From Bacteroidales bacterium (GTDB lineage: Bacteria > Bacteroidota > Bacteroidia > Bacteroidales > F082), in contig JAFPUN010000012.1 in the NCBI GenBank assembly GCA_017395365.1, positions 19,330 through 83,329 of the forward strand: 64,000 nucleotides of DNA, written 5' to 3'. Below the pieces are notes generated by a model. It saw only the letters and a program-made list of their open reading frames with translations, was not told the origin of the DNA and made no database searches. Below, in pieces: positions 8,854-54,702 of the stretch. Position numbers and translations under genes: made by a program. Positions within the stretch are counted from its first letter, which is position 1. Every line of letters begins with the position of its first letter.

Positions 8854-8856
8854 GGT

Positions 8857-10053
8857 TCATTCGATTTGTTTAAGGGGCAAAGTTACACTAAAAATCTTTC
8901 CATCATCAAAAATTTCAACATTTTCGTTCCATTTGATTCGATATCGCTCCGAAAGATTGGCCAAGCCAATGCCTGTTCCATCTTCTTTTCCAATCTTGGG
9001 TTGGATCTTATTGCTGATTACCAAATGATTTTCATCATCAGTCAAGATATTGATGGTGAGAGGTTGTTTCGATGAGATGACATTGTGCTTGATGGCGTTT
9101 TCTATCAAGCCCTGGATGGAGAGGGGCAAGACATAATAGTTGTCATATTTCTCATGGTCGATATGATGGTCGAAAACGAGATTGTCGCCATAACGCATCT
9201 TCATCATCCTGCAATAGGAGCGTACGCAATCAAGTTCCTGTGACAAAGTCACCACCTCCTCATTCTTAAGGGTGTAGCGCATCACGGTCGACAATTGGTG
9301 GACAAAATCGCCGGCTTTGTCGGCATCAACGTCAATCAATGCCTTCAAGGTGTTCAGCGAGTTGAAAAGAAAATGCGGGTCCATCTGGGTCTTCAGGGTC
9401 TCATAGCGCGAGTTAAGGTTCTCAGCACGAAGCGTCTCGTTCTCCACCGCTATTCGTCTTTGCTGATAAAGCGAGCGCTGCAAATAACTGAATACAAAAG
9501 CAATGGAGACCAAGGTGAAATCACCCAACATGCCTCTACTGATATATCCAATCAACGAGCGGGGAACGGGGCCATAAGGCCAAATATACAATTGAATGAT
9601 CGTACACAATGAACTTAAGAATCCAGCAATCAATAAGGTTCCCACAATATTAATCATCAATTCGTTACGGCGCAACGCATAATGCCGGCTCATCACCTTT
9701 CTGTTGTAAAGAAACACCGACAAAATCATCAGAAAGGTAAACGGAACATTAAACAGCAAAATATGTGAGAACCTGGGCTTGTCGAACTTGTGGCCTGGCT
9801 GGAATCTATCTGCTTGAAACAATGCTGGAAATTTTCTTTGAAATGTCCCAAAGACATATTCGTTGGCGCCCACCACATGCTCTTTCTCGCGTTCAAACTC
9901 TTCCTGCTCGTTGGCATCGGCAAAAGAAGGTCTGCCAAAATAATGGCTCAACGCAAACAAGGAATAATAGCCTATCGTTATGGCGAGTGTCATCATGATA
10001 ATCCGCTTCAGCGAAAGGTAGTTGTCGACTTCGTTCAAGTTCATGTTTTTCAT
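8857..10053 (-). CDS. Sensor histidine kinase (LytS/YehU-type His_kinase domain)
   Basis: TM segments, then the HFLFNSLNTLKALI motif and a C-terminal HATPase-like region (IENAIKHN...GTGIGLANL). Confidence 0.8.
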   Translation of the reverse strand: MKNMNLNEVDNYLSLKRIIMMTLAITIGYYSLFALSHYFGRPSFADANEQEEFEREKEHVVGANEYVFGTFQRKFPALFQADRFQPGHKFDKPRFSHILLFNVPFTFLMILSVFLYNRKVMSRHYALRRNELMINIVGTLLIAGFLSSLCTIIQLYIWPYGPVPRSLIGYISRGMLGDFTLVSIAFVFSYLQRSLYQQRRIAVENETLRAENLNSRYETLKTQMDPHFLFNSLNTLKALIDVDADKAGDFVHQLSTVMRYTLKNEEVVTLSQELDCVRSYCRMMKMRYGDNLVFDHHIDHEKYDNYYVLPLSIQGLIENAIKHNVISSKQPLTINILTDDENHLVISNKIQPKIGKEDGTGIGLANLSERYRIKWNENVEIFDDGKIFSVTLPLKQIE

Positions 10054-10066
10054 GGCAACGCTATCT

Positions 10067-11287
10067 TTATTCGTATCTCAAGGCATTAATCGGGTCGGTG
10101 CGCGATGCCTTCAAGGCGGGGAAGAATCCCGAAATGAGGCCGAGGATGGCGCACGAAACAAAGGCGATGACCATCCACAACACATTCACGACAAAAGGCA
10201 ACGACATGGCCATCGAGGCCACATAGGAGAGTAACAATCCAAGCAACATACCAACGACACCTCCGATAAGGCTCAAAATGATACTTTCGGTGAGGAACTG
10301 CAATAAGATCGCCGAGTTCTTGGCACCGATCGACATACGCAGGCCGATTTCCTTAGTGCGCTCGGTGACGGTGACGTACATGATGTTCATGATGCCGATA
10401 CAACCCACTAGCAAGGATATCAGAGCAATGGCAACCAACACCGTGGTGATCATGCCTGTCATCGATGTCATCATCTCCAACATCTCCTGTTGGGTGCGCA
10501 CCTCGAAATCGTCCGCACCACCGTCTGGAATCTTGTGTGAAACACGCAAAATGCTCTCAACTTCCTCCACAGCGGCCTCTGCCACATCCTCGGAAGCGGC
10601 AGAGCACACGATTTGCTGGATATAGTCAACGCCCAACATGCGCTTCTGCACTGTAGAATAAGGCATCACCACAAGGTCGTCCTGGTCCATGCCCATACCG
10701 TTTTGACCTTTCTCCTTCAATGTCCCAATGACCTTGAAAGGCATATTCCCAACGCGTATGGTCTTGCCGATAGGATCTTCACCCTCATCAAACAGCTCTT
10801 TGACAATGGTCTGGCCTATCAATCCGACTTTGGCGTATTTCTTCACATCTTCATCGGTGAAGTTGACACCTGTGGCAATCTCGTATTTTCTGATTTCCAG
10901 ATAGTCAGGAGAGCCACCATACACCGTTCCCGACCAGTTTTTGGATCCATTCACCAATTGGCCGCCACTGTTGACCACAGGGCTGACCATGGTGACATTT
11001 TTAGCGTTCTTGGCGATCAGTTCACAGTCTCTTACCTTGAGCGATTGCACATTGCTGGAGCCCATGCTGACGCCACCACGCCGTTGGTTGGCACGCATCA
11101 CCATGATGAGGTTGGTACCCATATCGGAGAGCTGATTCGCCGTACTTTGCTTTAAGCCCTCTCCCAAATTGACCACAGCGATGACGGCAGCAATACCAAT
11201 GACGATGCCAAGCATGGAAAGGGCCGAGCGCGTCTTGTTGCGCATCAAGGCTTTCGCCGAAATTCTTATGAGGTTCAGGATATCCAT
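10067..11287 (-). CDS. ABC transporter permease, MacB/FtsX family
   Basis: MacB_PCD-like periplasmic domain between TM1 and the C-terminal FtsX TM bundle. ATG at 11287; the track start at 11293 is TTG. Confidence 0.85.
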   Translation of the reverse strand: MDILNLIRISAKALMRNKTRSALSMLGIVIGIAAVIAVVNLGEGLKQSTANQLSDMGTNLIMVMRANQRRGGVSMGSSNVQSLKVRDCELIAKNAKNVTMVSPVVNSGGQLVNGSKNWSGTVYGGSPDYLEIRKYEIATGVNFTDEDVKKYAKVGLIGQTIVKELFDEGEDPIGKTIRVGNMPFKVIGTLKEKGQNGMGMDQDDLVVMPYSTVQKRMLGVDYIQQIVCSAASEDVAEAAVEEVESILRVSHKIPDGGADDFEVRTQQEMLEMMTSMTGMITTVLVAIALISLLVGCIGIMNIMYVTVTERTKEIGLRMSIGAKNSAILLQFLTESIILSLIGGVVGMLLGLLLSYVASMAMSLPFVVNVLWMVIAFVSCAILGLISGFFPALKASRTDPINALRYE

Positions 11288-11289
11288 GG

Positions 11290-12054
11290 TCAATAATCGT
11301 TTTCTACGGGCAAAGCCGCCAATGCCTCTGCCGCTGATTTGGTCGTCACGGACTCATCACGGAGGATGTGACCGTCACGAAGAAAGATGGTTCTACTCGT
11401 AAATACCGCAATGTCAGACTCATGTGTTACAAAGGCAATGGTCTTGCCCTGTTCGTGCAAACTCTGGAAGAGACTCATGATTTCGTAGGAGGTGCGGGTA
11501 TCAAGGTTACCTGTGGCTTCATCGGCCAACACGATGACCGGGTCGTTGACCAAGGCACGGGCGATGGCCACGCGCTGCTGCTGACCGCCCGAGAGTTGGT
11601 TGGGCATGTGACCCATGCGGTCTTTCAAACCCACAAGTTCCAGGGCATGCTGTGCCCTTTCATGGCGCTCGCGATGCGACACATCGGGATTATACACCAA
11701 AGGCAACTCTACATTCTCCAAAGCAGAAGTGCGCGGCAAGAGGTTGTAGGACTGGAACACGAAGCCAATCTTGCGGTTGCGAATCTCCGACAACTCGTTT
11801 TTGGACTTCGTCCTCACCGAGATGCCGTCAATGTAGTATTCGCCGGCAGTAGGCTGGTCGAGACAGCCGAGAATGTTGAGCAAGGTCGACTTACCGCTTC
11901 CCGACGAGCCCATGATACTCACGAACTCGCCTTGACAGATGTCAAATGACACACCCTTGAGGGCATGCACCTCCTCACTGCCAACAACAAACGTTCGTTT
12001 GAGGTTCTCAACCTTGATGATGGATTGCTTCTCATTCATAAAGTCAGACATCAT
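11290..12054 (-). CDS. ABC transporter ATP-binding protein (MacB/LolD-type)
   Basis: Walker A GSSGSGKST, signature LSGGQQQRVAIARAL, Walker B VLADEATGNLD. Confidence 0.9.
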   Translation of the reverse strand: MMSDFMNEKQSIIKVENLKRTFVVGSEEVHALKGVSFDICQGEFVSIMGSSGSGKSTLLNILGCLDQPTAGEYYIDGISVRTKSKNELSEIRNRKIGFVFQSYNLLPRTSALENVELPLVYNPDVSHRERHERAQHALELVGLKDRMGHMPNQLSGGQQQRVAIARALVNDPVIVLADEATGNLDTRTSYEIMSLFQSLHEQGKTIAFVTHESDIAVFTSRTIFLRDGHILRDESVTTKSAAEALAALPVENDY

Positions 12055-13304
12055 TTTTTCTGTTGCTGGTTGTTGTTCCTGTTTCTTCCAGGAGGACCAG
12101 GCATGAAGGGGTTCTCACCCTTCTTCACGGCCTTTTCCTTGGCAACAAATTGTGCCGACAGCACGACTGAATCACCAGCCTGCACACCTTGTTCGACGAT
12201 TCTGTATGCCCCGTCGCTCATGCCTGCCTTGACAGAACGTGGCATGATATCATTGCCTTTCTTTAGCCAAACCACAGTGTGACTGGACGCCGATGCTTCA
12301 TCCATCTCCGGGCGTTCGCCCTGTGGAGGCTCGCGTCGTTGACCCTCGGGCTTTTCAGCTTTGCGGATAGCTTTCAACACCGCCTCGTCGGGCGTAAAGG
12401 TGAAGGCCTCGGCCGGGACAGCCAAACCCGTTTGTTCTTCGGTGACGATAGTCACGCTAGCGGTCATGCCTGGGAACAACTTCTGATCGGGGTTGGGGGC
12501 CTCGATGATGACGGTATAGGTCACCACATTGCTTGTCGTGGTTGGCTTCATACGAATTTGATTCACAGTACCTTCAAACACATCGTTCATATAGGCGTCG
12601 ACGGTGAAAGTCACACGCTGTCCTGTCTTCACTTGCCCGATGTCGGCCTCGTCAACGTCAGCCTCCACCTGCATCTTGGTCAGGTCATTGGCCAAAGTGA
12701 ACAGCGTAGGCGTACTAAATGAAGCGGCCACCGTTTGGCCCACCTCCACCGCACGGTCAAGCACGATGCCATCGATGGGCGAATAGATTTCGGCATAGGC
12801 CAAGTCGACCCGAGCCTGGTCATAAGAGGCTTGCGCGTTGCGCTTGCTCATCTGCGCCTGAGTGTAACTGTTTTGCGCCTCTTGATAGGCTGCCAAAGTA
12901 GCGGCGTTTGCCTCATAGAGCTGCTTGGTACGTTCGTAAGTGAGCTTGGCATAATTGAGTTGGCTCTCGGCCGAGGTGAGACTGGCCTTGGCGCGACTCA
13001 AACTCTGGTTGAGCGTCTGCTTGTCCAACTCGGCCATCAATTGGCCTTTTTTCACTACATCGTTGAAATCGACATAGATCTTCTCCACCTTACCTGAAAC
13101 TTGGGTACCGACCTCAACGGTCTCCACAGGCTCGATGGTGCCCGTGGCGGTGACGGTGTTCTCAATGGTGTATTCCTCCACCACATGGGTGCGGACTACT
13201 AATTCCTTATTAGCTGATTTGGTGGCTTTTACAATCAGAGTCGCAACCACAGCAGCGACAATGACGCCAAGGATAATCAGCCATATTTTCCCTTTTTTCT
13301 TCAT
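12051..13304 (-). CDS. Efflux transporter periplasmic adaptor subunit (HlyD/MacA family)
   Basis: N-terminal TM anchor, coiled-coil hairpin and barrel-sandwich motifs. Stop overlaps the ATPase start. Confidence 0.85.
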   Translation of the reverse strand: MKKKGKIWLIILGVIVAAVVATLIVKATKSANKELVVRTHVVEEYTIENTVTATGTIEPVETVEVGTQVSGKVEKIYVDFNDVVKKGQLMAELDKQTLNQSLSRAKASLTSAESQLNYAKLTYERTKQLYEANAATLAAYQEAQNSYTQAQMSKRNAQASYDQARVDLAYAEIYSPIDGIVLDRAVEVGQTVAASFSTPTLFTLANDLTKMQVEADVDEADIGQVKTGQRVTFTVDAYMNDVFEGTVNQIRMKPTTTSNVVTYTVIIEAPNPDQKLFPGMTASVTIVTEEQTGLAVPAEAFTFTPDEAVLKAIRKAEKPEGQRREPPQGERPEMDEASASSHTVVWLKKGNDIMPRSVKAGMSDGAYRIVEQGVQAGDSVVLSAQFVAKEKAVKKGENPFMPGPPGRNRNNNQQQKK

Positions 13305-13390
13305 ATATCGTATTTTTCGATTTTCGTTTTTTTCTTGCGGCTGCCCAATCCCCCTACCCCCTTTGGAAGCTGGAATTGTAATAGCCCTAC

Positions 13391-13414
13391 AACTCTAAAC
13401 ACTCAACTCTAAAC
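13391..13414 (+). repeat. Tandem aactctaaac decamers
   Basis: aactctaaac at 13391 and 13405. The 13-mer tcaactctaaact is also present, inverted, at 62555-62567. Confidence 0.7.
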
Positions 13415-14719
13415 TTATAACTCTATCTTTTTGCCCATGTAAATGTCCAAAATCTTGCGTTGCATCACCAAAGAATACTTGTTCTGAATGTAGGAATTGA
13501 GGGCATTCAGGTAGTTGTTCTGCTGTTGTAGCAATTCCACCGTGGTAATGGTGCCGTATTGATATTGGATGTTGTATGCATTGAAGCTCTTGCTATATGC
13601 GTTTTCTTTTACCTGCGACACCTTATAGGCATTATAGGCTGACAACACATTGCGATAGGCTTGCACAACAGTCTGACGCACATTCAGCCGCGACTGTTCG
13701 TAGTCAAGTTGGGCTTGTTCCAAGGCGATGCGGCTCTTCTTCACATTGGCCTTGGTTTGACCTCGACTGTAGATGGGAATGCTCATCGAAACGCCTGCCG
13801 ACTCCGTAGGCGTCCCATACCATTTCTTGTTGCCGTCTTCGTCAAACGAAAGCACGCCCATGCCGACATTGGCATTTGCAGTGATGGAAGGGAAATAGTT
13901 GCCTCGTGCCATGTCGACGCTCTTTTCAGCCAATCGGATGTCATAGTCGCCTATACGCAAGTCAGGCATATAATCCATCGCCAGATTGATGGCTTCTTCC
14001 TCTGTTGGCAACGACGCTTTCAAGTCGTCGAGGTCTTCGGTATAGGGCGCAATAATCTCCAGATCGTCGGTTGGATTCATCGAAAGCAACACCTTCAGGT
14101 CCATCAAGTTGTTCTCGATGTTGATGCGCGTATCGACCACATTGTTGGAGTCGCTATAATACTGTGCCTCCAACAACAGGAAGTCGCTCTCAAGAATGGC
14201 TCCCAACTTATGGCGCACGCGGCCTTGGTTCAACTGCGCACGACTGGTATTGAGTACCTCTTGTTGATAGTTCAGCAAATCTTGGTTGCCAAGGATGGTG
14301 ACAAAACTTTGCAGGATTTGTGCTGTCAGTTGGTTATCATAACGCTCCAGTTGCACCGCGTTGCGCTCCATATTCAGACGGTTTTGCTCGATGGTGTTGT
14401 TGATGTTGCCACCTTGATAGATGGTCACCGACGAGCCTACGCCGACATTGCCCGATGTCGACCAACCGTTTTCATTGTTCGAGAAGTTCTGTCCCACCGA
14501 AGCACTCACATTGGGCAGGCGTTGTTGTTTCGATTGTTCATAGGTCGTCTCCAGTGATTGTCCCGTGAGTTCCATCGACTTGCGTTCATAGCTGTTGGCG
14601 TACGCATAACGTATGCAGTCTTCCAACGAGAAACGATAGGCATGATGCTCTTGGGCCCAACCTGAAAAGCCCAACCCAAAAATAACCAGCAATGCTACTA
14701 TGCTCTTTTTCATCCTCAT
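13415..14719 (-). CDS. TolC-family outer membrane efflux protein
   Basis: Signal peptide and two OEP-type repeats. First gene of the tolC-macA-macB-like operon. Confidence 0.85.
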   Translation of the reverse strand: MRMKKSIVALLVIFGLGFSGWAQEHHAYRFSLEDCIRYAYANSYERKSMELTGQSLETTYEQSKQQRLPNVSASVGQNFSNNENGWSTSGNVGVGSSVTIYQGGNINNTIEQNRLNMERNAVQLERYDNQLTAQILQSFVTILGNQDLLNYQQEVLNTSRAQLNQGRVRHKLGAILESDFLLLEAQYYSDSNNVVDTRINIENNLMDLKVLLSMNPTDDLEIIAPYTEDLDDLKASLPTEEEAINLAMDYMPDLRIGDYDIRLAEKSVDMARGNYFPSITANANVGMGVLSFDEDGNKKWYGTPTESAGVSMSIPIYSRGQTKANVKKSRIALEQAQLDYEQSRLNVRQTVVQAYRNVLSAYNAYKVSQVKENAYSKSFNAYNIQYQYGTITTVELLQQQNNYLNALNSYIQNKYSLVMQRKILDIYMGKKIEL

Positions 14720-15690: not shown

Positions 15691-15709
15691 TATTTCAAAA
15701 CCATTGACT

Positions 15710-17677
15710 ATGAAAAAGACACTACTATTGCTTGCCCTCTTCTCCTTCTCATTAGGCTTGGTTGCACAGCAACCTGCCACGCGGGCTTTCATCGACACAG
15801 ACGGTATCATCAAAACTGAAAGCGTACTTACCCAACTGCCACCAGCAAGTCGCGACGGCTTGACACCCATGCCTGGCTTCCCGCTGAGCTTCAGCTCCAA
15901 CACCACCTATAAACCCATGCGCGGCCTTGCCCTTGCTGACCTCAACAATGACGGTGCCGATGAGATCATCCTCTGCCACAACGAGGAAATCAACGTCATC
16001 GACGGGCAAGGCAACGTACTTTGGACACAACCTTTGGTGGGAGGCATGGCCCAGTATCCTGCTGCTGTCGGCGATATCAACAAAGACGGAATACTTGAAA
16101 TCGTATCCCTTACCGCCTATGGCAACGCTCGTGGCGGCATCAACGTCTTTGATGCTTCGGGCAACATCTTGATGGCAACAGTCACCAACAACAACCCTCT
16201 CATCTGTGCTCCCGTTTTGGCCGACCTCAACAACGACAGTAATTTGGAGATCATCTTCTGCGGTCGAGGGAAGGCCTCGGCCAGTATTTCAGCCGGCATC
16301 CATGCTTGGAACCTGCAAGGCGAAGAAATCGAAGGTTTCCCATTCGACCTGCCCTCAACTCCCGCCTTTACACCTACCTTGGCCGACATCGACGGTGACG
16401 GCTTCCTTGAGATGTTCGTTTCAACAACCACCGCTTTGTATTGCGTCAGTCATACCGGAGAAGAGATGTATAGGGTGGACAGCGAAGAAGCCTACAAATA
16501 CTCCTATCAATCGCCGCTCGTGGTTGACTTCGAAGGCGATGGCAATTGGAGCATCGTTGGTGCCTGTCATGGCGACAATCCAAACCATTATGTGCGCGAT
16601 GCCCACACGGGAGAGTACAGAACGGGATGGCCTAAACCCGTCTCCTATTGGACCTACTCCGCTCCGACAGTGGTCAAAAACGGTGACGAATATGCCATCT
16701 TTATGGGCGTCTCTGGCGAAGGCAACGTGTTCTACCAATACGATATGAACGGCAATATAGCTCCTGGATTCCCGCTCAACTTGACTTCGGGAGTTGAAGG
16801 CTTCATTTCCGTAGCTGACATCGATGGCGACGGCGCAAACGAAATCATCACCGACTTCAACCTGATGGACGGCGAGCAAGGCTACATCCGCGCTTGGGAG
16901 ATGGACGGCACCGAGGTGACCGAAGGCTTTCCGCTCCGTCCGCAAGGCCTATCCTATATGAACGGTGCCAATTTCGGTGACATCGATGGCGACGGCAACT
17001 TAGAAATCGTCACCTTGACCTATGTCCAGAACTTCTCGCCTGACGACCCTGTGTATGTCACTGCCTACGCACTGAATCAGCCCGATAAAAACCTTGTTTT
17101 CGGCACTTACAAAGGCAGCAACGACCGCATGGGCTGGATTCGTGAAGAAGAGATAGTCGTCAGTTGCAATCCCGTCCGTGACTTGGAGGCAGAAACCGGC
17201 GGTGACGTATCACAAGTGTATCTGCACTGGACCGAACCCGAACCTGGCTCAACGGGCAACCTGTTAGGCTACCTCATCCAGAAGAATGGCGAGCTCTTGG
17301 AAGAGTTTTTGGAAATTCCTGAATATGTAGACAACGAAGTTGAGTTCTTCGAGACCTACGAATATGTCATCATCGCTGTGTTCGACGACAACTGTGAGTC
17401 TGCCTGCGCCCCACTGTCAACAGAAGTGATTCCTGATGCCGTCCCAGAATACAGCAAGGAAGCCAAGGTCTATCCGAACCCTGCCCAGAACATACTTCAC
17501 ATCGAAGGTGGTGGCCTCACCGAAGTAGAAATGTTCAACATCATGGGCCAAAGTATGCTGAACATCAATGAAAATATTGAGACAGTCGACATCAGCCATC
17601 TGCAAAACGGCATCTATTTCGTGCGTCTCAAAACCAATGACGGAGAAAAGACCGTGAAACTTGTTATCGAGAAGTAA
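15710..17677 (+). CDS. FG-GAP/VCBS-repeat protein with T9SS C-terminal sorting domain
   Basis: Repeated DLNNDG/DIDGDG/DINKDG FG-GAP calcium-binding motifs. C-terminus KVYPNPAQNILHIEG...GIYFVRLKT...VKLVIEK. ATG at 15710; the track start is TTG. Confidence 0.8.
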   Translation: MKKTLLLLALFSFSLGLVAQQPATRAFIDTDGIIKTESVLTQLPPASRDGLTPMPGFPLSFSSNTTYKPMRGLALADLNNDGADEIILCHNEEINVIDGQGNVLWTQPLVGGMAQYPAAVGDINKDGILEIVSLTAYGNARGGINVFDASGNILMATVTNNNPLICAPVLADLNNDSNLEIIFCGRGKASASISAGIHAWNLQGEEIEGFPFDLPSTPAFTPTLADIDGDGFLEMFVSTTTALYCVSHTGEEMYRVDSEEAYKYSYQSPLVVDFEGDGNWSIVGACHGDNPNHYVRDAHTGEYRTGWPKPVSYWTYSAPTVVKNGDEYAIFMGVSGEGNVFYQYDMNGNIAPGFPLNLTSGVEGFISVADIDGDGANEIITDFNLMDGEQGYIRAWEMDGTEVTEGFPLRPQGLSYMNGANFGDIDGDGNLEIVTLTYVQNFSPDDPVYVTAYALNQPDKNLVFGTYKGSNDRMGWIREEEIVVSCNPVRDLEAETGGDVSQVYLHWTEPEPGSTGNLLGYLIQKNGELLEEFLEIPEYVDNEVEFFETYEYVIIAVFDDNCESACAPLSTEVIPDAVPEYSKEAKVYPNPAQNILHIEGGGLTEVEMFNIMGQSMLNINENIETVDISHLQNGIYFVRLKTNDGEKTVKLVIEK

Positions 17678-17678
17678 G

Positions 17679-18959
17679 ATGGCTGGTGTATACATCCATA
17701 TTCCTTTCTGCAACTCGAAATGCGCCTATTGCGGGTTCTATTCGCTGCCTTCCTTGAAGCTGAAAGATCGCTTCTTGGAGGCTTTGAAAGCGGAGATTGT
17801 GGAAAGAAAGGATTACCTTCAGCGTGGGCCTCATTGCGGGCTTGACCCGCAATCCCCTACGCTGAAGGGCAATCACGATATGCCACCCATCAACACCATC
17901 TATTTCGGTGGCGGCACGCCTTCCTTACTATCCATAAAGGAAATCAGCGAGCTGCTACATCTTATTAAGGAGACGTACCCCATCGCCGAAAACGCTGAAA
18001 TCACCCTTGAAGCCAATCCCGACACGCTGTCGTTGGAATACCTCGAAAGTTTGCGACAACGTGGAGTCAACAGGCTCAGCATCGGCATTCAAAGCTTTTT
18101 CGACAATGACTTGAAGTATCTAAGCCGTCGCCATGACTCACATCACGCCCGACAATGTATCGATTGGGCCAAACAAGCGGGCTTCAATAACATCAGCATT
18201 GATTTGATTTATGGTCTGCCTACCTCAAACGCCGAGCAATGGAACCGCAACCTTGACCTCTTTTTTGCATTGAACATCCCCCACCTCTCGGCTTATGCAC
18301 TCACCCTAGAGCCCAATGCCATTTTGACCAAACAAATCGAACTAGGAAAGGTGTATCCCGTCAACGAAGAGGATGCCTTACGTGATTATGACATCCTCTG
18401 CCAACGCGCCAAGGAAAACGGTTATCTGCATTATGAGATCTCCAATTTCTGCCGTCGTGAGATGCATTCGAAGCACAACGCCAGCTATTGGTTCGGAACA
18501 CCATACATAGGCTTCGGGCCTTCAGCACATTCCTTCGATGGCACTTCACGGCAATGGAATGTTTCCAGCGTTGAACGCTATTGTGAGGTTTTCTCTACTG
18601 CATCACGTCATTGCGAGGAGGAACGACGAAGCAATCCAGACAAAGAGCTTCAGTATCTGGATTGCTTCGTTCCTCGCAATGACGCAAAGCGCGTCCAGGA
18701 TTCGGTGTTGGAAGTCGAACAATTAACCCTAGAGCAGCAATACGACGAATATGTCATGCTCCGCTTGCGCACCCATTGGGGCATCGACCTGAAGTGGCTG
18801 AAACGTGAAATGGGCGAACGTTTCTCCACCTATTGCGAACAACATGCCCAGCCCTTGATTGCCCAAGGCAGGCTCTCACAAACACGCGAATTCCTCTACC
18901 TCACCGACCAACAGATGCTCTTCGCCGACGGCGTGGCAGAAGAATTGTTTTGGGAATAA
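17679..18959 (+). CDS. hemW: Radical SAM heme chaperone HemW (HemN-like), carrying two in-frame palindromic-repeat insertions
   Basis: YIHIPFCNSKCAYCGF radical-SAM CxxxCxxC, GGGTPS, HemN_C-like end. ATG at 17679, one nt after the upstream stop. About 50 aa longer than my recollection of typical HemW length. Confidence 0.85.
   Translation: MAGVYIHIPFCNSKCAYCGFYSLPSLKLKDRFLEALKAEIVERKDYLQRGPHCGLDPQSPTLKGNHDMPPINTIYFGGGTPSLLSIKEISELLHLIKETYPIAENAEITLEANPDTLSLEYLESLRQRGVNRLSIGIQSFFDNDLKYLSRRHDSHHARQCIDWAKQAGFNNISIDLIYGLPTSNAEQWNRNLDLFFALNIPHLSAYALTLEPNAILTKQIELGKVYPVNEEDALRDYDILCQRAKENGYLHYEISNFCRREMHSKHNASYWFGTPYIGFGPSAHSFDGTSRQWNVSSVERYCEVFSTASRHCEEERRSNPDKELQYLDCFVPRNDAKRVQDSVLEVEQLTLEQQYDEYVMLRLRTHWGIDLKWLKREMGERFSTYCEQHAQPLIAQGRLSQTREFLYLTDQQMLFADGVAEELFWE
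17833..17853 (+). repeat. Mini-palindrome attgcggg-cttgac-ccgcaat inside hemW
   Basis: 8-bp stem. The flanks tcATTGC...GCAATcc match the arm ends of the 77-nt element at 18607 and 59229. Confidence 0.7.
18607..18683 (+). repeat. 77-nt palindromic element (gtcattgcgagg...agcaatccag arms), in frame inside hemW
   Basis: The long arm at 18607-18639 pairs with the short arm at 18657-18683. The same element occurs intergenically at 59229-59304 in the opposite orientation. Confidence 0.85.
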
Positions 18960-29774: not shown

Positions 29775-29779
29775 CAAAG

Positions 29780-29806
29780 AAGAGACGCATGGCGTCTCTT
29801 TTTTTG
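29780..29806 (+). terminator. Rho-independent terminator of tRNA-Phe
   Basis: agagacgc-atg-gcgtctct stem followed by ttttttt. Confidence 0.8.
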
Positions 29807-29831
29807 TTGTCATTCTGTGTGTATAGGGCAT

Positions 29832-29862
29832 AAAAAAAGCACCCCCGAGGAGGTGCTTTTTT
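29832..29862. terminator. Bidirectional terminator candidate (downstream of the fimbrillin-like gene)
   Basis: aaaaaaagcacc...ggtgctttttt hairpin flanked by A and T runs, 20 nt below the stop at 29882. Confidence 0.6.
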
Positions 29863-29881: not shown

Positions 29882-30853
29882 TTAGTTCAGGCTAAGGGCA
29901 AGGTTCTTGATAACACCAGCCTTGATGCCATAATGCCAATCAGCAGCATTTTCGAACACTTGAGGTTCGTTAGCACCTTCGGTGTACACATAAATCTTGT
30001 AGCCATACTTCAGAGCGCCCGGACGGAGACCGATGAAGAACAAGGTCTCGGTGCTGCTCAGCTGAACGCTGGGGCAGTTGAGGGTCATGGTCTTTCCACC
30101 ACCTTGGGTCGAGTAACCAAGCTTATTCTTGAGAGAATTCCAATCGCTCACGAAAGAATCATTGTTGTAAGGATCATCAGCACTAACAAAAGCGTTTTGC
30201 AGGGTGGTAAATTTGTCCATATCGACTTCATGGAGCTTCATGGTTGCAGAGCCACTCAGATTGAATCTCTTGTCTTCCACTACGATTTGAGTAACTTTGC
30301 CAGTACCCGTCAGTCTCAACTTCAAAGTACCGAAGATGTGCTTCAGCGTGAAAGACTTAAAGTTTGCGCTCTCGCAAGCCATAGCCATACCAGCTTTGTC
30401 AATCGTAGGTTTGCCTTTAACAAGGGTATACTCTTGTTGATCGGGCACATTGAAAGTCTCGAAGTTGCTCGCATCCAAAGGATCTTCACCGCTAGCCACC
30501 TTGTCGCAAGGATAGAAAACAAAGTAATGGTCTTTTTTGCTGCCGAGGTCAGGACCCGTAAAAGAGGCACTGGCTTTACCTTCGGCGCTGGCATTGGTGC
30601 TCCAAATGCCCTTGACAGTCTGAGTACCGTCGGCATTATCAATGTTGTAAGCCATGACTTGGTCATTAGCATTCCACTTGAAGGAATTATTGTTGGCAAT
30701 GTCAAGATAGGCTCTGCCTTCCATCTCCTCCTCAAACTGAGGCAATCCGAGGTTCAAGGTAGATGCAGTGTCGTTTTTCTTGCAGGAACCAAGCAGCAAA
30801 GTAAAAGAACCGGCAACAAACAATGCCACAAATATTCTGTTCATTTTATTCAT
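29882..30853 (-). CDS. Lipoprotein, fimbrillin (FimA/Mfa-superfamily)-like
   Basis: Lipobox LLLGSC. Size of about 320 aa and the FTLKHIFGTLKLRLTG-type strand pattern recall Bacteroidales type V pilin-like proteins. The product call is tentative. Confidence 0.5.
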   Translation of the reverse strand: MNKMNRIFVALFVAGSFTLLLGSCKKNDTASTLNLGLPQFEEEMEGRAYLDIANNNSFKWNANDQVMAYNIDNADGTQTVKGIWSTNASAEGKASASFTGPDLGSKKDHYFVFYPCDKVASGEDPLDASNFETFNVPDQQEYTLVKGKPTIDKAGMAMACESANFKSFTLKHIFGTLKLRLTGTGKVTQIVVEDKRFNLSGSATMKLHEVDMDKFTTLQNAFVSADDPYNNDSFVSDWNSLKNKLGYSTQGGGKTMTLNCPSVQLSSTETLFFIGLRPGALKYGYKIYVYTEGANEPQVFENAADWHYGIKAGVIKNLALSLN

Positions 30854-30911
30854 CTCGTAATCTGTTTGATGATTTTACTTAACTACACTTTATTTATTGT
30901 ACCAGAATAAC

Positions 30912-31025
30912 TTATTCTTCAGGTTGGGGTTCAATAGTAATTTCAGTAGACATCACAACGACCACGTTGTTCAGCATTTCAATTGTTTCAGCCTTAGGGG
31001 CTTCATAGTTGTTCATCTTTTTCAT
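30912..31025 (-). CDS. Unannotated 37-aa ORF MKKMNNYEAPKAETIEMLNNVVVVMSTEITIEPQPEE (candidate precursor peptide)
   Basis: Hand translation of the minus strand gives an ATG start and a TAA stop. A -7 box lies 75 nt upstream. It sits between the nucleotidyltransferase gene and the lipoprotein gene and is below the 60-aa cutoff of the ORF track. Confidence 0.4.
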   Translation of the reverse strand: MKKMNNYEAPKAETIEMLNNVVVVMSTEITIEPQPEE

Positions 31026-31099
31026 TTTTGTTAGTTTTTAAGGTTTTACTTATGTTTGTTAATTAAATATTTAGCCAAAAAGTGCTTATAAATCGGCTG

Positions 31100-31107
31100 C
31101 AAAAGTA
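31100..31107 (-). promoter_or_regulatory. -7 box (TAcTTTTG) upstream of the 37-aa ORF
   Basis: Plus strand caaaagta, 32 nt below the nucleotidyltransferase stop codon. Confidence 0.45.
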
Positions 31108-31138
31108 GTAAATTAATTCATACGCAGTGGAAAAAAAG

Positions 31139-32251
31139 TCATTTTTTAAAAAGATTTTTTCTAAACCCATGTTTCAAGGAGTTACGCAACTCCTTAAAAG
31201 CGTATCGTGGGAACACGCTTGCCAAATGAAAGAAATCGATAAAGACAAGTATGAAAGCGTGTAGTTTGTGAAGTAATTTGTTTTTCGGTTTTTGGCTCTT
31301 GAAACGGTTGGGGCGTCTGAAATTACCTTCTGCCATCACTCGATGGTACACCTTCTGTGCCGTGCGTCGGCACGATGCATTAAAGAAAGGCATCTCGTTC
31401 TCAGGAAGCCCCAAACAGTTCACGATGAGATAACCAAAAGCCTGCCATGGCTGCATCAAACACATAGTTTCCAACCATTGGCGCAGTTTGTCGAGATCAA
31501 TCTGCCCGTGATAGACATGTAGAGCCATGGCCACGTCACTCACCTGACGCCAGCCCACGCCGGTAGTGGTGAAGTGATGCCATGCATGGAAGAAGGTGAA
31601 AAACACCATAAACTCTTTTGACGGTATGGTTATGGGAAAACCATCGAGATCAATCTGCTGGACATGCTCTACCAAACCATCATATTCGATGGCGGCATAC
31701 AAGGCATTCTCCTTCGGGTCGGTCATTTCGGCACTGACACGGTGTATCTCAAACACCACATTGCCGAACTCCACATTATAGTGGCGTCCTGCATCCACTT
31801 CCATGCACCATGTGTATGCGCCAGGAAGCGAACGTACTAAAGCGCAGGCCTCATGGAAACAGGACAGACCCACAAACAGGTCGTTGTCGCCAAACTGCCG
31901 CAAGGCGGGGTTAGGATAGAGTTGCGCAAGGCCAAAGCCCTTGAGCAACATCGGCTCAATGCCATTCTCGCGCAGAGTGGTCACCACCTTGGTCAGTATT
32001 TGCTTCGATTCGATTTGGCTGAAAAGGTTCGACCGCAGGGCTCCCTTTAACTTGGCTTGCCTATCATCGGAAGGACGATCGCCTTCGGGCAAACGCAAAG
32101 CCACATCGGCAACGAGCGTGGTAGTGGCATGGAACCGGGCAATACCCATAATCTCATGCCAATCGACGTCTCCATTAAGATTCACCGGCGTGCCCCATAA
32201 AGCCGCCTGCATTAATGAAAAGTAATGCGCTTCCGAGGTTGTCATGTTCAT
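31139..32251 (-). CDS. Nucleotidyltransferase family protein (PF14907/NTP_transf_5-like)
   Basis: ENGIEPMLLKGFGLAQLYPNPALRQFGDNDLFV is the hallmark LLKG...YP...R...D.D block of the uncharacterised nucleotidyltransferase family. ATGA overlap with the PqqD-like gene. Confidence 0.7.
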   Translation of the reverse strand: MNMTTSEAHYFSLMQAALWGTPVNLNGDVDWHEIMGIARFHATTTLVADVALRLPEGDRPSDDRQAKLKGALRSNLFSQIESKQILTKVVTTLRENGIEPMLLKGFGLAQLYPNPALRQFGDNDLFVGLSCFHEACALVRSLPGAYTWCMEVDAGRHYNVEFGNVVFEIHRVSAEMTDPKENALYAAIEYDGLVEHVQQIDLDGFPITIPSKEFMVFFTFFHAWHHFTTTGVGWRQVSDVAMALHVYHGQIDLDKLRQWLETMCLMQPWQAFGYLIVNCLGLPENEMPFFNASCRRTAQKVYHRVMAEGNFRRPNRFKSQKPKNKLLHKLHAFILVFIDFFHLASVFPRYAFKELRNSLKHGFRKNLFKK

Positions 32252-32517
32252 TCTTCCAAAATCCCTGCTTCGCGCCAGTTCAGAATCAAAGCGTCGATGT
32301 CGTGTTCGGCCACCTCGCGAGTGATGTCATAATTGTCCAGCAAAATATCGACTAATGCAGCTGCATCAAATTCCTTGTCCTGTACGGCTTCCCAAAGAAG
32401 TGCAGCCGACGCATTGAGCGAGATCATGCGATTGAAATCGGTCAGATTGGAGCCCTCGTCGACAAGAATAAACTCATTGCCCAAGGTGCGCATTATCAAG
32501 CCTTTTTTCGTTCTCAT
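32248..32517 (-). CDS. PqqD-family protein (RiPP recognition element-type peptide chaperone)
   Basis: LGNEFILVDEGS...MISLNASAALLWEAVQD...AAALVDILLDNYDITREVAEHDIDALILNWREAGILE fits the PqqD pattern. ATG at 32517; an upstream TTG at 32547 would overlap the peptidase gene. Confidence 0.7.
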   Translation of the reverse strand: MRTKKGLIMRTLGNEFILVDEGSNLTDFNRMISLNASAALLWEAVQDKEFDAAALVDILLDNYDITREVAEHDIDALILNWREAGILEE

Positions 32518-32533
32518 ATTAATTAATGTGTAT

Positions 32534-32959
32534 TTATTGTTTTCCAAATAGTTGATTCCATTTTCGCATGCCTTTCAAAAGATAGCGCCTGACTGGCAGC
32601 AAGAGTCTCCACAAGCGCCCACGAGTGGGTTTGCGATGTCGGCCATTCGCTTTGACTATCTCTGTTACTATTGCCAACACTGCCGATTTGCCGACCTTCT
32701 CCGTCCCATTCACGATGCCATCGCCCATCATCACCACCGTATCGCCTTCGATTCGGATAACACGATGCAACACATACCTTCCTTGATAGGGCGCCAAGGC
32801 AATGTCGCCTACACGAAGTGACTCGGGCTTACGGAGCACCACGCTGTCGACTTCGCCACGAATGAAAGGCAACATGCTACTGCCTACAGGGGTCAGTTGG
32901 ACTTGTTTGCCCTCTGCAAGCAATTGCTCCATCCTCGCACTATTATCTGTTTTTTCCAT
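32534..32959 (-). CDS. S24/S26-family peptidase, Ser/His (SipW/Sec11-like) arrangement, without TM segment
   Basis: VGSSMLPFIRGE (Ser box) and YVLHRVIRIEGD (His where bacterial SPase I has the catalytic Lys). 141 aa with no hydrophobic stretch long enough for a membrane anchor. Confidence 0.65.
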   Translation of the reverse strand: MEKTDNSARMEQLLAEGKQVQLTPVGSSMLPFIRGEVDSVVLRKPESLRVGDIALAPYQGRYVLHRVIRIEGDTVVMMGDGIVNGTEKVGKSAVLAIVTEIVKANGRHRKPTRGRLWRLLLPVRRYLLKGMRKWNQLFGKQ

Positions 32960-33828
32960 CAGTGGGCAACAGTATTATGACACAAGAAGGCAGCATCAGC
33001 ATCAGGCAGACAATCAAGCACATAGAAAGGCACTGAAGTGACGACCTTTTCGGAAGTGGCATGGTAGCCATCCGCCAGTTGGCGCAGGGCATGATATCCA
33101 GAATAGGAAGCAAACAGAATAGCATAAGCCTCCGGAAACGACAACCTTTGTATCCTGTTCTCCTTGGCTTGTCGGATACGGACAATGGCGCCCACAGGGA
33201 CGGTGATATTGCGATAACAAGGCGTCTTACCGCTCCATGGCGTTCCGCTGACGCGAATAATGCCTTCTGTATCAATGTAAAGCACTGGGTTGTCATCGTT
33301 GAGCAACTCACAGCCAGGAATATTGTCTATCCATAGCTGGCTATGGGTACTCTTACCTGTACCGCTACGACCCAAAAACAGATAGCCTTTGCCGTCACAC
33401 ATAGTCACAGAGGCATGCATCATCAAAGCGCCACGGCCGGCAGTAGCAAGAGAAAACAGCAGCAACAGCATAGTGTGCATCAAAAAAACGGCATCGCTCT
33501 CGAGATATATCCGTCCTTGCTTGAAGGCCTTGTCGGTGAAGAGATACACCAAAGGCAGGTCTTCGCCATGTTTAAGCATGACAAAAAGCCATTCGCCGTT
33601 AAGCTCCGATAACTCAAAATACAAGCCATCCGACTCGCCCTCATCGGTCCTCACGAACTGTTTGCCACGAATGCTCGGAAGTTTCTGAAGCATACTGACA
33701 GTGAAGAGGCACTCCCCATCATCTTCCACAAGAAAGGGCTCATAAGACTGCATACTCTTCCAATAGGAGTTACCATCGGGCATTTCCAAGCTAAACTTCT
33801 GGCCCGCGACTTGATAGGTTCTCTTCAT
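32959..33828 (-). CDS. HPr-kinase C-terminal-domain-like P-loop serine kinase
   Basis: MHASVTMCDGKGYLFLGRSGTGKSTHSQLW...LLNDDNPVL resembles HprK-related kinases. ATG at 33828. The 438-aa track ORF is an upstream extension antisense to lnt. Confidence 0.65.
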   Translation of the reverse strand: MKRTYQVAGQKFSLEMPDGNSYWKSMQSYEPFLVEDDGECLFTVSMLQKLPSIRGKQFVRTDEGESDGLYFELSELNGEWLFVMLKHGEDLPLVYLFTDKAFKQGRIYLESDAVFLMHTMLLLLFSLATAGRGALMMHASVTMCDGKGYLFLGRSGTGKSTHSQLWIDNIPGCELLNDDNPVLYIDTEGIIRVSGTPWSGKTPCYRNITVPVGAIVRIRQAKENRIQRLSFPEAYAILFASYSGYHALRQLADGYHATSEKVVTSVPFYVLDCLPDADAAFLCHNTVAH

Positions 33829-33844
33829 CAGACATAATTTTCTG

Positions 33845-33852
33845 CAAAGATA
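33845..33852 (-). promoter_or_regulatory. -7 box (TAtcTTTG) for the kinase-peptidase-PqqD-NTase operon
   Basis: Plus strand caaagata, 17 nt upstream of the ATG at 33828. Confidence 0.5.
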
Positions 33853-45174: not shown

Positions 45175-47247
45175 ATGAAACGCACAATCCTTTTAGTACT
45201 GGCGCTTTTGTCCGTGTTGTCTTACGCACAAGAGCCACAAACACAACGATCTGCCAACTATGTTGAAAACGAGTTCATCATTTGGTTGGAGCAAGGTGTT
45301 GACGCTTCGACCTTTGCCGTCAATACCGGTATTGACATCCAACCGAAAAGACTGTTATCCGAAAGGCTGAACATCTGGCTTTTTGAAACCGCAGACAACA
45401 AAGGACCCAGAGAAGACAAAATACACCGATTGGCTGCCAACAAAGATGTCCGTGTCATCCAAAACAACCATACCAACATCATGTTACGCGAGGCCATCCC
45501 CGATGACCCATATTATGAGATGCAGTGGGCGCCGGCCATCATGAGTCTTCCCCAAGCGTGGGAGGCCTTCACTACAGGTGGAGTCACGGCAACGGGCGAC
45601 ACCATCGTGGTGGCCGTCATCGACGGAGGCATGGACTGGACCCATGAGGACCTGAATTGCTGGGAAAACCACCATGAAATACCCAATAACAGAATCGATG
45701 ACGACGGCAATGGTTATGTTGACGACTATCGAGGCTGGAATGCCTACAACCACAACGGATATGTGGGCAGTCACTACCACGGCACCCATGTTTCGGGTAT
45801 CGTTGGCGCTGTCGGAAACAACGAGAAAGGCGTATGCGGTGTGAATTGGAATGTGAGAGTCATGCCCATCGCCGGCAGCTCGGGCGACGAGTCCATTGTT
45901 GTGGAAGCTTATGCATACGCATTGGAGATGAGGGCGCGATACAATGAGACCCAGGGCGAAGAAGGCGCCTTCGTCGTAGCCACCAACTCGTCTTTTGGAG
46001 TTGACTACGGCGACCCTAACGACTATCCCATTTGGTGCGCGATGTATGATGAGATGGGAGATGTTGGCATATTGAGTTGCGGGGCTGGTCCCAACATGAA
46101 TGTGAATGTAGATGAAGTGGGCGATGTCCCCTCCACTTGCCCTGGTGACTATCTGATTGGCATCACCAACACCACCTCGGACGATGTAAAATACGGGAGT
46201 GCCGGTTACGGTGTCACCAATATCGACATTGGAGCTCCTGGAACAGCGATTTATTCCACTACGCCTAACAATGGTTACAACGGCTCGACGGGTACCTCGA
46301 TGGCCACCCCACAAGTCGCTGGCACCATCGCGTTGATGTATGCGGCCTTACCCGAAGAAATGATGCAAGACTGCAAAGACGACCCTGCCCATTTCAGTCT
46401 TATAATGAAATATCACCTGCTTAACGGAGCCGACCATCTGCCTTCGCTCGATGGATTGGTAGCCTCGGGAAGGAGATTGAACGCCTATGGAGCTATAGAA
46501 AGCGCTTTAACCGATAGTATCGTGCCCGAATTAATTGGAGAAGTCAATATTATAGGCGAACCTTTCTTCGGAGAGACTTTGACCACAGAAACGAATCTGA
46601 ATTCCACGCCATCCATTCCTGACCTTGGCATGCTGAACTACCAATGGTGGAGAGGCACGACACCCATCGAAGGTGCCGTTGACTCAACCTACACCTTGAC
46701 TGAAGATGACATTTTCGAAAGGATTTGTGTGCAAGTTACTGCCACAAACTGCACAGGGACCCTGACTTCGCCCTATTTCGGTCCTATCAAAAAGGCAGAA
46801 CAGGCCATGCCCGATGCGCCGCAGATGGAGAGCAACACCGATACGAGCATCATGCTTGTCGCCATTGAAGACGGAGAATACAATATCGACGGTGGAGACT
46901 GGCAGTCCTCACCTATATTTGAAGGCCTAACGCAGAGCACATCCTACACCTTCACACAACGCAAGAAGGAGACACGGTCGCATTACGCTTCGCCTTCAAG
47001 TCCAGAAGCAGTGTTTAGCACAATGCCAGACCAGATTAACGAGAATCGTCAAAGCGTCTTCAAGGTTTTTCCCAACCCTTCCAAAAGCAGCGTGACAATT
47101 GAAGGCCAGGGAATGCTCGTCATCACCAATACTTTGGGGCAAACTGTTTTAACCAAGAAAATCGAGGGCAAAACAAAAGTGGAATTGCCGCAAGGGTTGT
47201 ATTTCATGAAAATGGGAAACGAAACGCGGAAGATTGTGGTGGAATAG
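45175..47247 (+). CDS. S8-family (subtilisin-like) serine peptidase with T9SS C-terminal sorting domain
   Basis: Catalytic triad contexts VAVIDGG, HGTHVSGIVGA, GTSMATPQVAG. C-terminus VFPNPSKSSVTIEG...GLYFMKMGNETRKIVVE. Confidence 0.85.
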   Translation: MKRTILLVLALLSVLSYAQEPQTQRSANYVENEFIIWLEQGVDASTFAVNTGIDIQPKRLLSERLNIWLFETADNKGPREDKIHRLAANKDVRVIQNNHTNIMLREAIPDDPYYEMQWAPAIMSLPQAWEAFTTGGVTATGDTIVVAVIDGGMDWTHEDLNCWENHHEIPNNRIDDDGNGYVDDYRGWNAYNHNGYVGSHYHGTHVSGIVGAVGNNEKGVCGVNWNVRVMPIAGSSGDESIVVEAYAYALEMRARYNETQGEEGAFVVATNSSFGVDYGDPNDYPIWCAMYDEMGDVGILSCGAGPNMNVNVDEVGDVPSTCPGDYLIGITNTTSDDVKYGSAGYGVTNIDIGAPGTAIYSTTPNNGYNGSTGTSMATPQVAGTIALMYAALPEEMMQDCKDDPAHFSLIMKYHLLNGADHLPSLDGLVASGRRLNAYGAIESALTDSIVPELIGEVNIIGEPFFGETLTTETNLNSTPSIPDLGMLNYQWWRGTTPIEGAVDSTYTLTEDDIFERICVQVTATNCTGTLTSPYFGPIKKAEQAMPDAPQMESNTDTSIMLVAIEDGEYNIDGGDWQSSPIFEGLTQSTSYTFTQRKKETRSHYASPSSPEAVFSTMPDQINENRQSVFKVFPNPSKSSVTIEGQGMLVITNTLGQTVLTKKIEGKTKVELPQGLYFMKMGNETRKIVVE

Positions 47248-54658: not shown

Positions 54659-54694
54659 GGTGATTGAGCCTTTCGAACCATCAGTTTCAAACGG

Positions 54695-54702
54695 CAAAAA
54701 TA
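54695..54702 (-). promoter_or_regulatory. -7 box (TAttTTTG) for the OlsF-like gene
   Basis: Plus strand caaaaata. The track TTG start at 54697 lies inside this box and is therefore unlikely. Confidence 0.45.

Follow-up and report, generated by a model that had tools for sequence, protein, structure and literature searches.

Linear Polyphosphorylated Peptides (LPPs) are made by a recently described pathway for peptides that are synthesized on ribosomes and modified after translation (RiPPs), the closest described system to the locus that we report here: six genes on the minus strand of a 64 kb stretch of Bacteroidales DNA (contig JAFPUN010000012.1 of assembly GCA_017395365.1, positions 19,330 to 83,329). 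We refer to this whole 64 kb stretch as the window. The LPP pathway is encoded by lppA-K-B-S-D-N of Paenibacillus alginolyticus (Popov et al., Nat Commun 2026;17:6633, PMC13381572). Its core genes encode a SipW/archaeal-type signal-peptidase-like protein (LppS), a discrete RiPP recognition element (RRE; LppB), an HprK-like kinase (LppK), an NTP_transf_5 transferase (LppN), an MsbA-like exporter (LppD), and a precursor (LppA) whose YxxP leader precedes a variable tail (PMC13381572). In a heterologous host, LppK places up to four phosphates on core Ser3. LppS, with catalytic residues S29, H68, and D93, cuts the leader only when LppB is present, and no cyclase is involved; no activity was seen for LppN (PMC13381572). 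The final product and role of LPP are unknown, and the authors regard the pathway as restricted to Bacillota (PMC13381572).

We consider it likely that the locus in the window is a Bacteroidales version of this LPP-type (linear phosphorylated peptide) pathway, with a chemistry predicted by homology. We make this assignment because all four of its enzymes, a kinase (K), a peptidase (S), a PqqD-type RRE (B), and a nucleotidyltransferase (N), are homologous to LPP counterparts, their catalytic Ser/His and leader-binding residues are intact, a precursor-type peptide (A) is encoded behind its own promoter, and the genes are genetically linked, in some relatives as fusions. A previous reading of the DNA from its letters and open reading frames (ORFs), hereafter the sequence-only reading, had proposed a non-lasso system for peptide phosphorylation and nucleotidylation in which an S26 peptidase serves as the protease. 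This proposal is supported by the homology to the pathway demonstrated in Paenibacillus (PMC13381572). The same reading held that the function of such a system was unknown. This has been overtaken in part by the description of the LPP pathway in May 2026, and it still applies in that the LPP product and role are unknown there too (PMC13381572). The system is known in kind, the variant is new, and it would extend the pathway beyond Bacillota.

The likeness to LPP extends across the whole gene set. Both systems combine a homologous soluble Ser/His peptidase, a discrete PqqD-type RRE, a kinase of the TIGR04249/TIGR04352 type, and a PF14907 transferase, and a cyclase is absent from both. They also share a small precursor (a probable one here) whose N-terminal leader reads MKKxxY-x-x-P and whose variable tail contains much Gly, Asn, Asp, and Pro, a Ser/Thr near the presumed cleavage site, and a linkage to the cell surface, through capsule genes in LPP and through a pilin-like lipoprotein here. 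The differences begin with the host, which is a Gram-negative member of the Bacteroidota. The peptidase is only ~28% identical to LppS, the leader does not contain the VLxHQxIxFETxxS or Px9Fx[T/A] part, and the cores of the window family are shorter and acidic. The gene order here is K-S-B-N followed by A, which has its own promoter, and the MsbA-like exporter is missing from the window variant. Furthermore, a gene for a pilin-like lipoprotein is probably co-transcribed with the precursor gene, relatives carry kinase-peptidase fusions, and the window-type lineage keeps a chromosomal position beside lnt and dus that appears vertically inherited. These Bacteroidales relatives are also very abundant in rumen and gut metagenomes.

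Enzymes of the locus and alternative roles for them

The window kinase resembles the kinases of LPP clusters. Its top match in NCBIfam is TIGR04249 (ScmC; 7e-7, under the model cut-off), followed by TIGR04352 (4e-3), and it also weakly matches PEPCK_ATP (1.4e-3); its homologues bear the Pfam family PF27840, ‘ScmC’. Three models, TIGR04249, TIGR04352, and TIGR04355, delimit the ‘HprK kinase’ group of LPP clusters (PMC13381572). The same three are the top models of the window kinase, and the kinases were compared through these shared models. An AlphaFold2 model of the window kinase (pLDDT 90.6) matched ATP-dependent PEPCK (E = 4e-7) and HprK/P (E = 4e-5 to 5e-4) in Foldseek, with modest TM-scores of 0.3-0.5. 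The Walker A, NDDNP, and SPWSGKTPCY motifs are invariant. Searches of the PDB by sequence gave no useful match for the kinase or the peptidase. Three kinase homologues from metagenome gene calls (P0159, P0209, and P0269) carry N-terminal LpxB-like or TruB-like extensions; these could represent real fusions or gene calls that ran on into housekeeping neighbours.

The ScmC match also admits a role other than peptide phosphorylation. SynChlorMet cassettes encode two PqqE-like radical SAM/SPASM enzymes beside ScmC and a PqqD homologue (TIGRFAMs annotations). The P-loop protein of the locus could accordingly serve as an ATP-dependent chaperone, or as an activating enzyme, in a peptide-maturation system related to SynChlorMet or HPr-rel-A, whose product would not be a phosphopeptide. 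The locus has in common with SynChlorMet (TIGR04249) and HPr-rel-A/GeoRSP systems (TIGR04352, TIGR04355, and TIGR04302) a ScmC/HprK-related P-loop protein and a PqqD-family protein. This alternative is favored by the top curated match being a radical-SAM cassette protein of unknown function, although below the cut-off, and by the modest TM-scores given above. Unlike those systems, however, the locus has no radical SAM/SPASM partners, and its kinase matches lie far below the cut-offs; a HemN-like protein 14 kb away is the window's only radical SAM member. Moreover, the three kinase motifs are invariant, and the kinases of LPP clusters match the same TIGR04249/TIGR04352 models, with LppK known to phosphorylate Ser3 (PMC13381572). 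We thus regard a non-kinase role as very unlikely. We also rejected a radical-SAM system of the SCM type as a candidate, because there is no SPASM enzyme in the window; the lone radical SAM protein is the HemN-like one (17661-18956), and none recurs in the related loci.

The peptidase is related to LppS. An LppS-family hidden Markov model (HMM) matches the window protein at E = 5e-13, BLASTP aligns the two with 28% identity across 123 aa, and an hhalign comparison of 75 Bacteroidales peptidases with the LppS family reaches a probability of 98.9% (E = 2e-17) over 129 columns, end to end. The LppS, LppB, and LppA sequences for these comparisons were those of Supplementary Data 1 of PMC13381572. 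Four residues (S28, H65, D80, and E87) are invariant in 75/75 peptidase sequences, and the catalytic S29 and H68 of LppS map to window S28 and H65. Fusions of kinase and peptidase of ~435-515 aa, which come from metagenomes and from a single assembled genome (P0127, P0145, P0168, P0197, P0229, and L085), constitute a Rosetta-stone link between the two genes.

The remaining two enzymes match their families clearly. The PqqD protein matches PF05402 (E = 3.9e-15), and its family aligns in hhalign with both LppB (96.7%) and lasso B1 proteins (97.0%); its sole PDB match by sequence is the lasso RRE TfuB1 (E = 0.019). In LppB, N33 fixes a Pro kink and D70 hydrogen-bonds the leader Tyr (PMC13381572), and the equivalents of both residues are invariant in 74/74 PqqD-family sequences. 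The nucleotidyltransferase matches PF14907 (E = 4.3e-34). These results bear out the enzyme assignments of the sequence-only reading. The HPr-kinase-like P-loop protein (GRSGTGKST) is corroborated by TIGR04249, by PF27840 in homologues, and by the PEPCK and HprK/P fold matches, and the PqqD/RRE and PF14907 calls by the family matches. The soluble S24/S26 Ser/His peptidase is upheld by the LppS profile match and the invariant Ser/His pair, though its Pfam S24 score of 17.9 bits is below the threshold of 23.3.

A kinase, a PqqD protein, and a PF14907 protein also accompany lasso peptide clusters of the paeninodin and pseudomycoidin type. The enzymes could thus be the tailoring set of a true lasso peptide whose cyclase C and B2 protease lie elsewhere in the genome. 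Like the clusters with paeninodin PadeK and pseudomycoidin PsmK/PsmN, the locus has an HprK-like kinase, PF14907, an RRE of the PqqD-type B1 kind, and a [Y/W]xxP leader motif. The equal scores of the PqqD protein against lasso B1 and LppB agree with this alternative, as does the fact that only 64 kb of the genome are in view. In contrast to those clusters, the locus contains neither an Asn-synthetase-like cyclase nor a transglutaminase-like B2 protease; it has an S26-type leader protease, and its product is presumably linear. Pfam scans of the ~56 ORFs across the 64 kb found no Asn-synthase-like cyclase, Transglut_core protease, or SPASM radical SAM protein, and no Transglut_core match was present among window ORFs of 90-290 aa, in line with what the sequence-only reading had claimed for these 64 kb. 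Nor was an AsnB-like PP-loop ORF (mid-protein SGGxDS) found in 85 related loci, each spanning at most 21 kb. Furthermore, the cassette brings an LppS-type leader peptidase of its own, in which the Ser/His pair is intact, and the LPP peptidase works without a cyclase (PMC13381572). The only families that recur near the kinase are K, S, B, N, an MsbA-like exporter (D), and the lipoprotein. A lasso origin is hence extremely unlikely.

The candidate precursor peptide and the adjoining lipoprotein

The 37-aa ORF downstream of the nucleotidyltransferase gene is likely the precursor and substrate of the locus enzymes, because its YxxP leader is conserved, its tail is hypervariable, and at least 1000 clusters make up its family. 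The sequence-only reading had noticed this ORF and its separate promoter, both of which stand, and had overlooked the precursor role. The full peptide, MKKMNNYEAPKAETIEMLNNVVVVMSTEITIEPQPEE, divides into a leader, MKKMNNYEAPKAETIEMLNNVVVVM, and a Ser/Thr junction with tail, STEITIEPQPEE, and is the only copy of such an ORF in the window. Every window-type locus has an ORF of 37-54 aa 3' of the nucleotidyltransferase gene. Among 17 divergent copies, the Y, P, and E of the Y-x-A-P-x-x-E motif never change, and the codons of invariant residues vary synonymously only. Distant leader variants (MKKIEYKAPTMEIIKL... and MEQYEAPRMEVIEM...) keep these three residues, and such variants adjoin K or B genes in five related loci (L053, L054, L065, L084, and L026).

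A profile search with the small peptide returned at least 1000 clusters at 90% identity, and our description of leader and tail is based on the best 120 of these, which are 38-54 aa long. We find that the leader is nearly fixed at 26 residues, as MKKMNK[MT]YEAP[KV]AE[VM]IEMQMP[VT]VLM-x-S or as a second type containing ...NVNKDFM..., whereas the tails are hypervariable, with lengths of 12-28 residues and an abundance of Gly, Ser, Thr, Asp, Glu, Asn, and Pro. A Ser occurs two residues past the invariant Met in the main subtype, and a Ser/Thr four residues past Met in the second.

These features suggest a pathway modeled on LPP. The PqqD-type RRE would bind the 37-aa peptide via Y7-x-x-P10, with the invariant Asp holding Tyr and the invariant Asn fixing the Pro kink. 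It would present the peptide to the HprK/ScmC-type kinase, which may phosphorylate a Ser/Thr at the leader/core junction (S26/T27), possibly repeatedly; the conserved Ser two residues past the invariant Met would be the phosphosite in most family members. The RRE would also present the peptide to the S26-type Ser/His peptidase, which is predicted to remove a leader of ~25 aa near the hydrophobic-hydrophobic-Met segment, here near V24-T27. The PF14907 transferase may then put a nucleotide- or sugar-derived group on the phosphate, a step that is unproven even in LPP. The predicted product is a short, linear, acidic phosphopeptide of ~10-25 aa in the family, strain-variable, with a core of ~10-12 aa here.

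The gene following the precursor gene encodes a lipoprotein with a pilin-like predicted structure. Its lipobox is LLLGSC, with Cys24, and it has no Pfam match; one remote homologue bears PF13149. Foldseek searches with its AlphaFold2 model (pLDDT 84.4) matched 3t2l (5e-8) and also 3ufi, 3sy6 (fimbrial protein BF1861), 3r4r, and Mfa3. Against BF1858, BACOVA_04980, BF1861, BDI_3522, and Mfa3, the Foldseek probability is 1.00 and E ranges from 5e-8 to 1e-4, with modest TM-scores of 0.4-0.48. The protein thus unites a lipoprotein signal with Cys and, in the predicted structure, the two-domain transthyretin-like fold of the type V pilin (FimA/Mfa) superfamily. This resemblance to Bacteroides type V pilins supports its earlier description as fimbrillin-like. 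The lipoprotein gene is present in 15/15 window-type loci, including loci with another downstream flank, and is probably co-transcribed with the precursor gene. In the distant Bacteroides metagenome-assembled genome (MAG) L065, the precursor gene is followed by a lipoprotein of another size, whose N-terminal domain is related (hhalign 85%). Lipoproteins 3' of the precursor in L053 and in cluster c21 showed no significant relationship to the window lipoprotein family.

The association with the lipoprotein raises the alternative that the enzymes act on this pilin-like protein, or on some other protein, which would leave the small ORF as a micro-ORF that is unrelated or has a regulatory role. Consistent with this, linkage between the lipoprotein and the small ORF is tight, most K-S-B(-exporter) loci have no recognisable small ORF nearby, and LPP precursors can reach 200 aa (PMC13381572). 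However, the peptidase, kinase, and RRE contain neither a signal peptide nor a transmembrane segment; their predicted location is therefore the cytoplasm, and an exported lipoprotein would be beyond their reach. The YxxP motif that PqqD-type RREs bind is present in the small ORF itself, and the RRE retains the contacting Asp and Asn. In addition, at least 1000 variants combine a conserved leader with a hypervariable tail, a hallmark of RiPP precursors, and distant leader variants stand beside K/B genes in the five loci named above. Another substrate is accordingly unlikely. The lipoprotein as a substrate of the peptidase was rejected, since the peptidase has no signal peptide or transmembrane segment.

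For the LPP-type pathway in Bacteroidales, we tentatively offer a further, rather doubtful suggestion on its biological role. Bacteroidales may have domesticated the pathway as a vertically inherited module beside housekeeping genes, whose short, strain-variable, acidic phosphopeptide would act not as a secreted antibiotic but in functional coupling with the pilin-like lipoprotein, as a ligand, maturation factor, or strain-identity tag of a surface or pilus structure. If true, RiPP chemistry would be tied to cell-surface biology in a dominant gut and rumen phylum, and the orphan LPP class would gain its first role.

Related loci across Bacteroidales

The kinase family is large, with 7802 clusters at 50% identity matching at E <= 1e-3 and 596 at E <= 1e-30. 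Among species-representative genomes, we found at least 600 matching stretches and confirmed at least 593 loci. The best 80 of these (at least 593) loci are all from Bacteroidales MAGs, belonging to Ca. Limimorpha, Rikenellaceae, Muribaculaceae, Paludibacteraceae, Bacteroidaceae, and Cryptobacteroides.

Gene architectures were counted over 82 non-redundant related loci. We show that the kinase, peptidase, and PqqD genes occur together in 72/82 of these, mostly in the order K-S-B and with unrelated flanks. Because this holds for diverse Bacteroidales with differing flanks, the association of the three genes is beyond chance. A check of co-occurrence and synteny across Bacteroidales had been proposed in the sequence-only reading, and this is its outcome. 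The most frequent architecture is K-S-B with an MsbA-like exporter of the ATP-binding cassette (ABC) type (43 loci), followed by the window type, K-S-B-N with a small ORF (12 loci). K-S-B occurs with no further family members in 8 loci, K-S-B-N-D in 6, K-S-B-N-D-A in 2, and K-N only in 4. The nucleotidyltransferase, present in ~25/82 loci and missing from most relatives, is an accessory component. Among the related loci, L058, L067, and L082 (Paludibacteraceae) and L024 have the kinase directly beside the PF14907 transferase and neither a peptidase nor a PqqD gene in the vicinity, a reduced two-gene variant.

An MsbA-like exporter adjoins the cassette in 52/82 related loci, so that the commonest relatives have one. 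The only ABC proteins of the window belong to a MacB-type tripartite efflux system (FtsX permease, ABC ATPase, HlyD adaptor, and OEP) at 8104-14719, which lies ~17 kb from the locus and is the sole exporter-like system of the window. Beside it are a LytTR response regulator and a histidine kinase, and no link to the locus was seen.

Coupling of an S26-type peptidase to an ABC exporter is also a feature of Bacteroidota SpI-ABC loci, cluster 8 of the sequence similarity network (SSN) in PMC13381572. In both cases the peptidase stands beside a PqqD-type RRE; in SpI-ABC loci, however, it is fused to the transporter, whereas here it is free-standing or, in relatives, fused to the kinase. The 2019 BLAST set in the LPP paper likewise contains five unstudied Bacteroidota peptidases that are fused to ABC transporters (PMC13381572). 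Carriers of SSN cluster 8 include Paludibacter propionicigenes (WP_013444635.1) and a Porphyromonadaceae MAG, which are listed and not analysed in PMC13381572.

Several observations weigh against assigning the locus to the LPP-type pathway. The kinase scores below the NCBIfam thresholds and the peptidase below the Pfam S24 threshold, the PqqD protein is no nearer to LppB than to lasso B1, and the catalytic D93 of LppS aligns one column before the invariant E87, with D80 also invariant. The consensus of the LppA leader is YxxPxVLxHQxIxFETxxS / Px9Fx[T/A], ahead of a variable C-terminus (PMC13381572). An LppA HMM did not detect the small ORF (E = 0.27), whose leader shares only MKKxxYxAP with LppA and does not keep the Px9Fx[T/A] spacing. 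Because the LppA profile missed the small ORF, we call the precursor LPP-like on its YxxP motif and on architecture only.

A search for an LppD-like exporter of the MsbA type found none in the locus or the window. Within 10 kb of most K-S-B-exporter loci, a leader HMM, regexes, and de novo clustering of intergenic small ORFs recovered no recognisable precursor, so that adjacency of a precursor is not general; no second precursor family emerged in exporter-type loci. The window-type cassette sits in conserved housekeeping synteny (lnt and dus), in contrast to the patchy, horizontally moving LPP clusters of Bacilli (PMC13381572). Finally, phosphorylation, the cleavage site, and nucleotidyltransferase activity at the locus are predictions carried over from homologous systems.

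If the LPP-type assignment holds, an orphan RiPP class reaches uncultured members of a dominant gut and rumen order, where it is abundant, with at least 593 loci and at least 1000 precursor variants. The window-type cassette was found in no cultured or named species, only in MAG records labeled ‘Bacteroidales bacterium’. Features of the variant could help explain the role of the peptide, namely the strong-looking conserved promoter of the precursor gene, the hypervariable acidic cores, and the kinase-peptidase fusions. The exporter and the pilin-like lipoprotein appear as alternative partners, which hints at a link to the cell surface. The combination of an S26-type leader peptidase, a ScmC-type kinase, and an RRE could also serve as an anchor for genome mining of RiPPs. 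This architecture is not mentioned in a 2023 survey of Bacteroidales RiPPs, and a literature search on ‘ScmC’ gave nothing informative, while PF14907 turned up in a single, unrelated paper.

Organization of the locus and other features of the window

Six ORFs on the minus strand, within 29882-33852, were found at the coordinates given by the sequence-only reading, and the four enzyme genes do lie co-oriented behind one -7 box, as it had described. Identical proteins are present in NCBI MAG records MBQ4398703-710, in which the kinase and the lipoprotein are annotated as ‘hypothetical’ and the small ORF is unannotated.

Features of the locus, with positions in the window.
Feature	Position	Strand	Remark
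-7 promoter box TAtcTTTG (Bacteroidetes-type) of the kinase-peptidase-PqqD-nucleotidyltransferase operon	33845..33852	-	Read from sequence
LppK-like P-loop kinase (HprK/ScmC type), 289 aa	32959..33828	-	Walker A GRSGTGKST
LppS-like soluble S26 (SipW/archaeal-type) Ser/His leader peptidase, 141 aa	32534..32959	-	Without transmembrane segment
PqqD-type discrete RRE (LppB / lasso-B1-like), 89 aa	32248..32517	-	From ATG 32517; alternative TTG start 32547
LppN-like PF14907 (NTP_transf_5) nucleotidyltransferase, 370 aa	31139..32251	-	
-7 box TActTTTG of the precursor-lipoprotein transcription unit	31100..31107	-	
Probable precursor peptide (LppA-like), 37 aa	30912..31025	-	Conserved leader and variable tail
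Type-V-pilin (FimA/Mfa)-like lipoprotein, 323 aa	29882..30853	-	Lipobox Cys24
Intrinsic terminator closing the locus	29833..29862	-	13-bp stem and U-run, -18.7 kcal/mol, z = -3.0

Related loci retain both promoter boxes. TAnnTTTG is kept at -24 relative to the kinase ATG in 13/13 window-type loci, and TAyTTTTG is kept 74-93 nt 5' of the small ORF, inside a conserved block, likewise in 13/13, which supports the separate promotion of the 37-aa ORF. From this conservation, we infer two transcription units: an enzyme operon, K-S-B-N, and a unit of the precursor gene and the lipoprotein gene, ended by the terminator. The hairpin listed in the table matches the strong terminator that had been placed at about 29850, at the end of the locus.

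The gene junctions agree with the sequence-only reading except at one point. The kinase/peptidase junction at 32959 had been given as ATGA but is TGATG, a 1-nt overlap. The ATGA overlap joining the PqqD and nucleotidyltransferase genes at 32248-32251 is present, and the stated 16 nt between the peptidase and PqqD genes hold for a PqqD start at ATG 32517. This start is favored over TTG 32547 because homologues are 88-90 aa long. For the kinase, ATG 33828 is most likely the start, since the longer ORF from GTG 34275 would overlap the divergent lnt gene.

A convergent tRNA-Phe gene adjoins the locus downstream, and an Rfam search of the locus region found nothing besides this tRNA. Two back-to-back hairpins, one after tRNA-Phe on the plus strand (29776-29804) and the other the terminator of the locus on the minus strand, form a convergent terminator zone at 29776-29862.

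Other parts of the window contain features apart from the locus. The stretch 2518-5042 looks like an integrated mobile element; it holds BT4734-like_N and DUF3987/PriCT_2 primase-type genes, has a GC content of 0.58-0.59 as against ~0.49 elsewhere, and lies near tRNA-Lys (5892-5967). Four proteins carry the type IX secretion C-terminal sorting domain Por_Secre_tail (15704-17674, 45175-47244, 59323-60975, and 62597-63994), including an FG-GAP protein and an S8 subtilase. A 608-aa protein at 52874-54697 combines Acyltransf_2/Acyltransferase and GNAT-like Acetyltransf_5 domains, an architecture typical of bifunctional aminolipid synthases.

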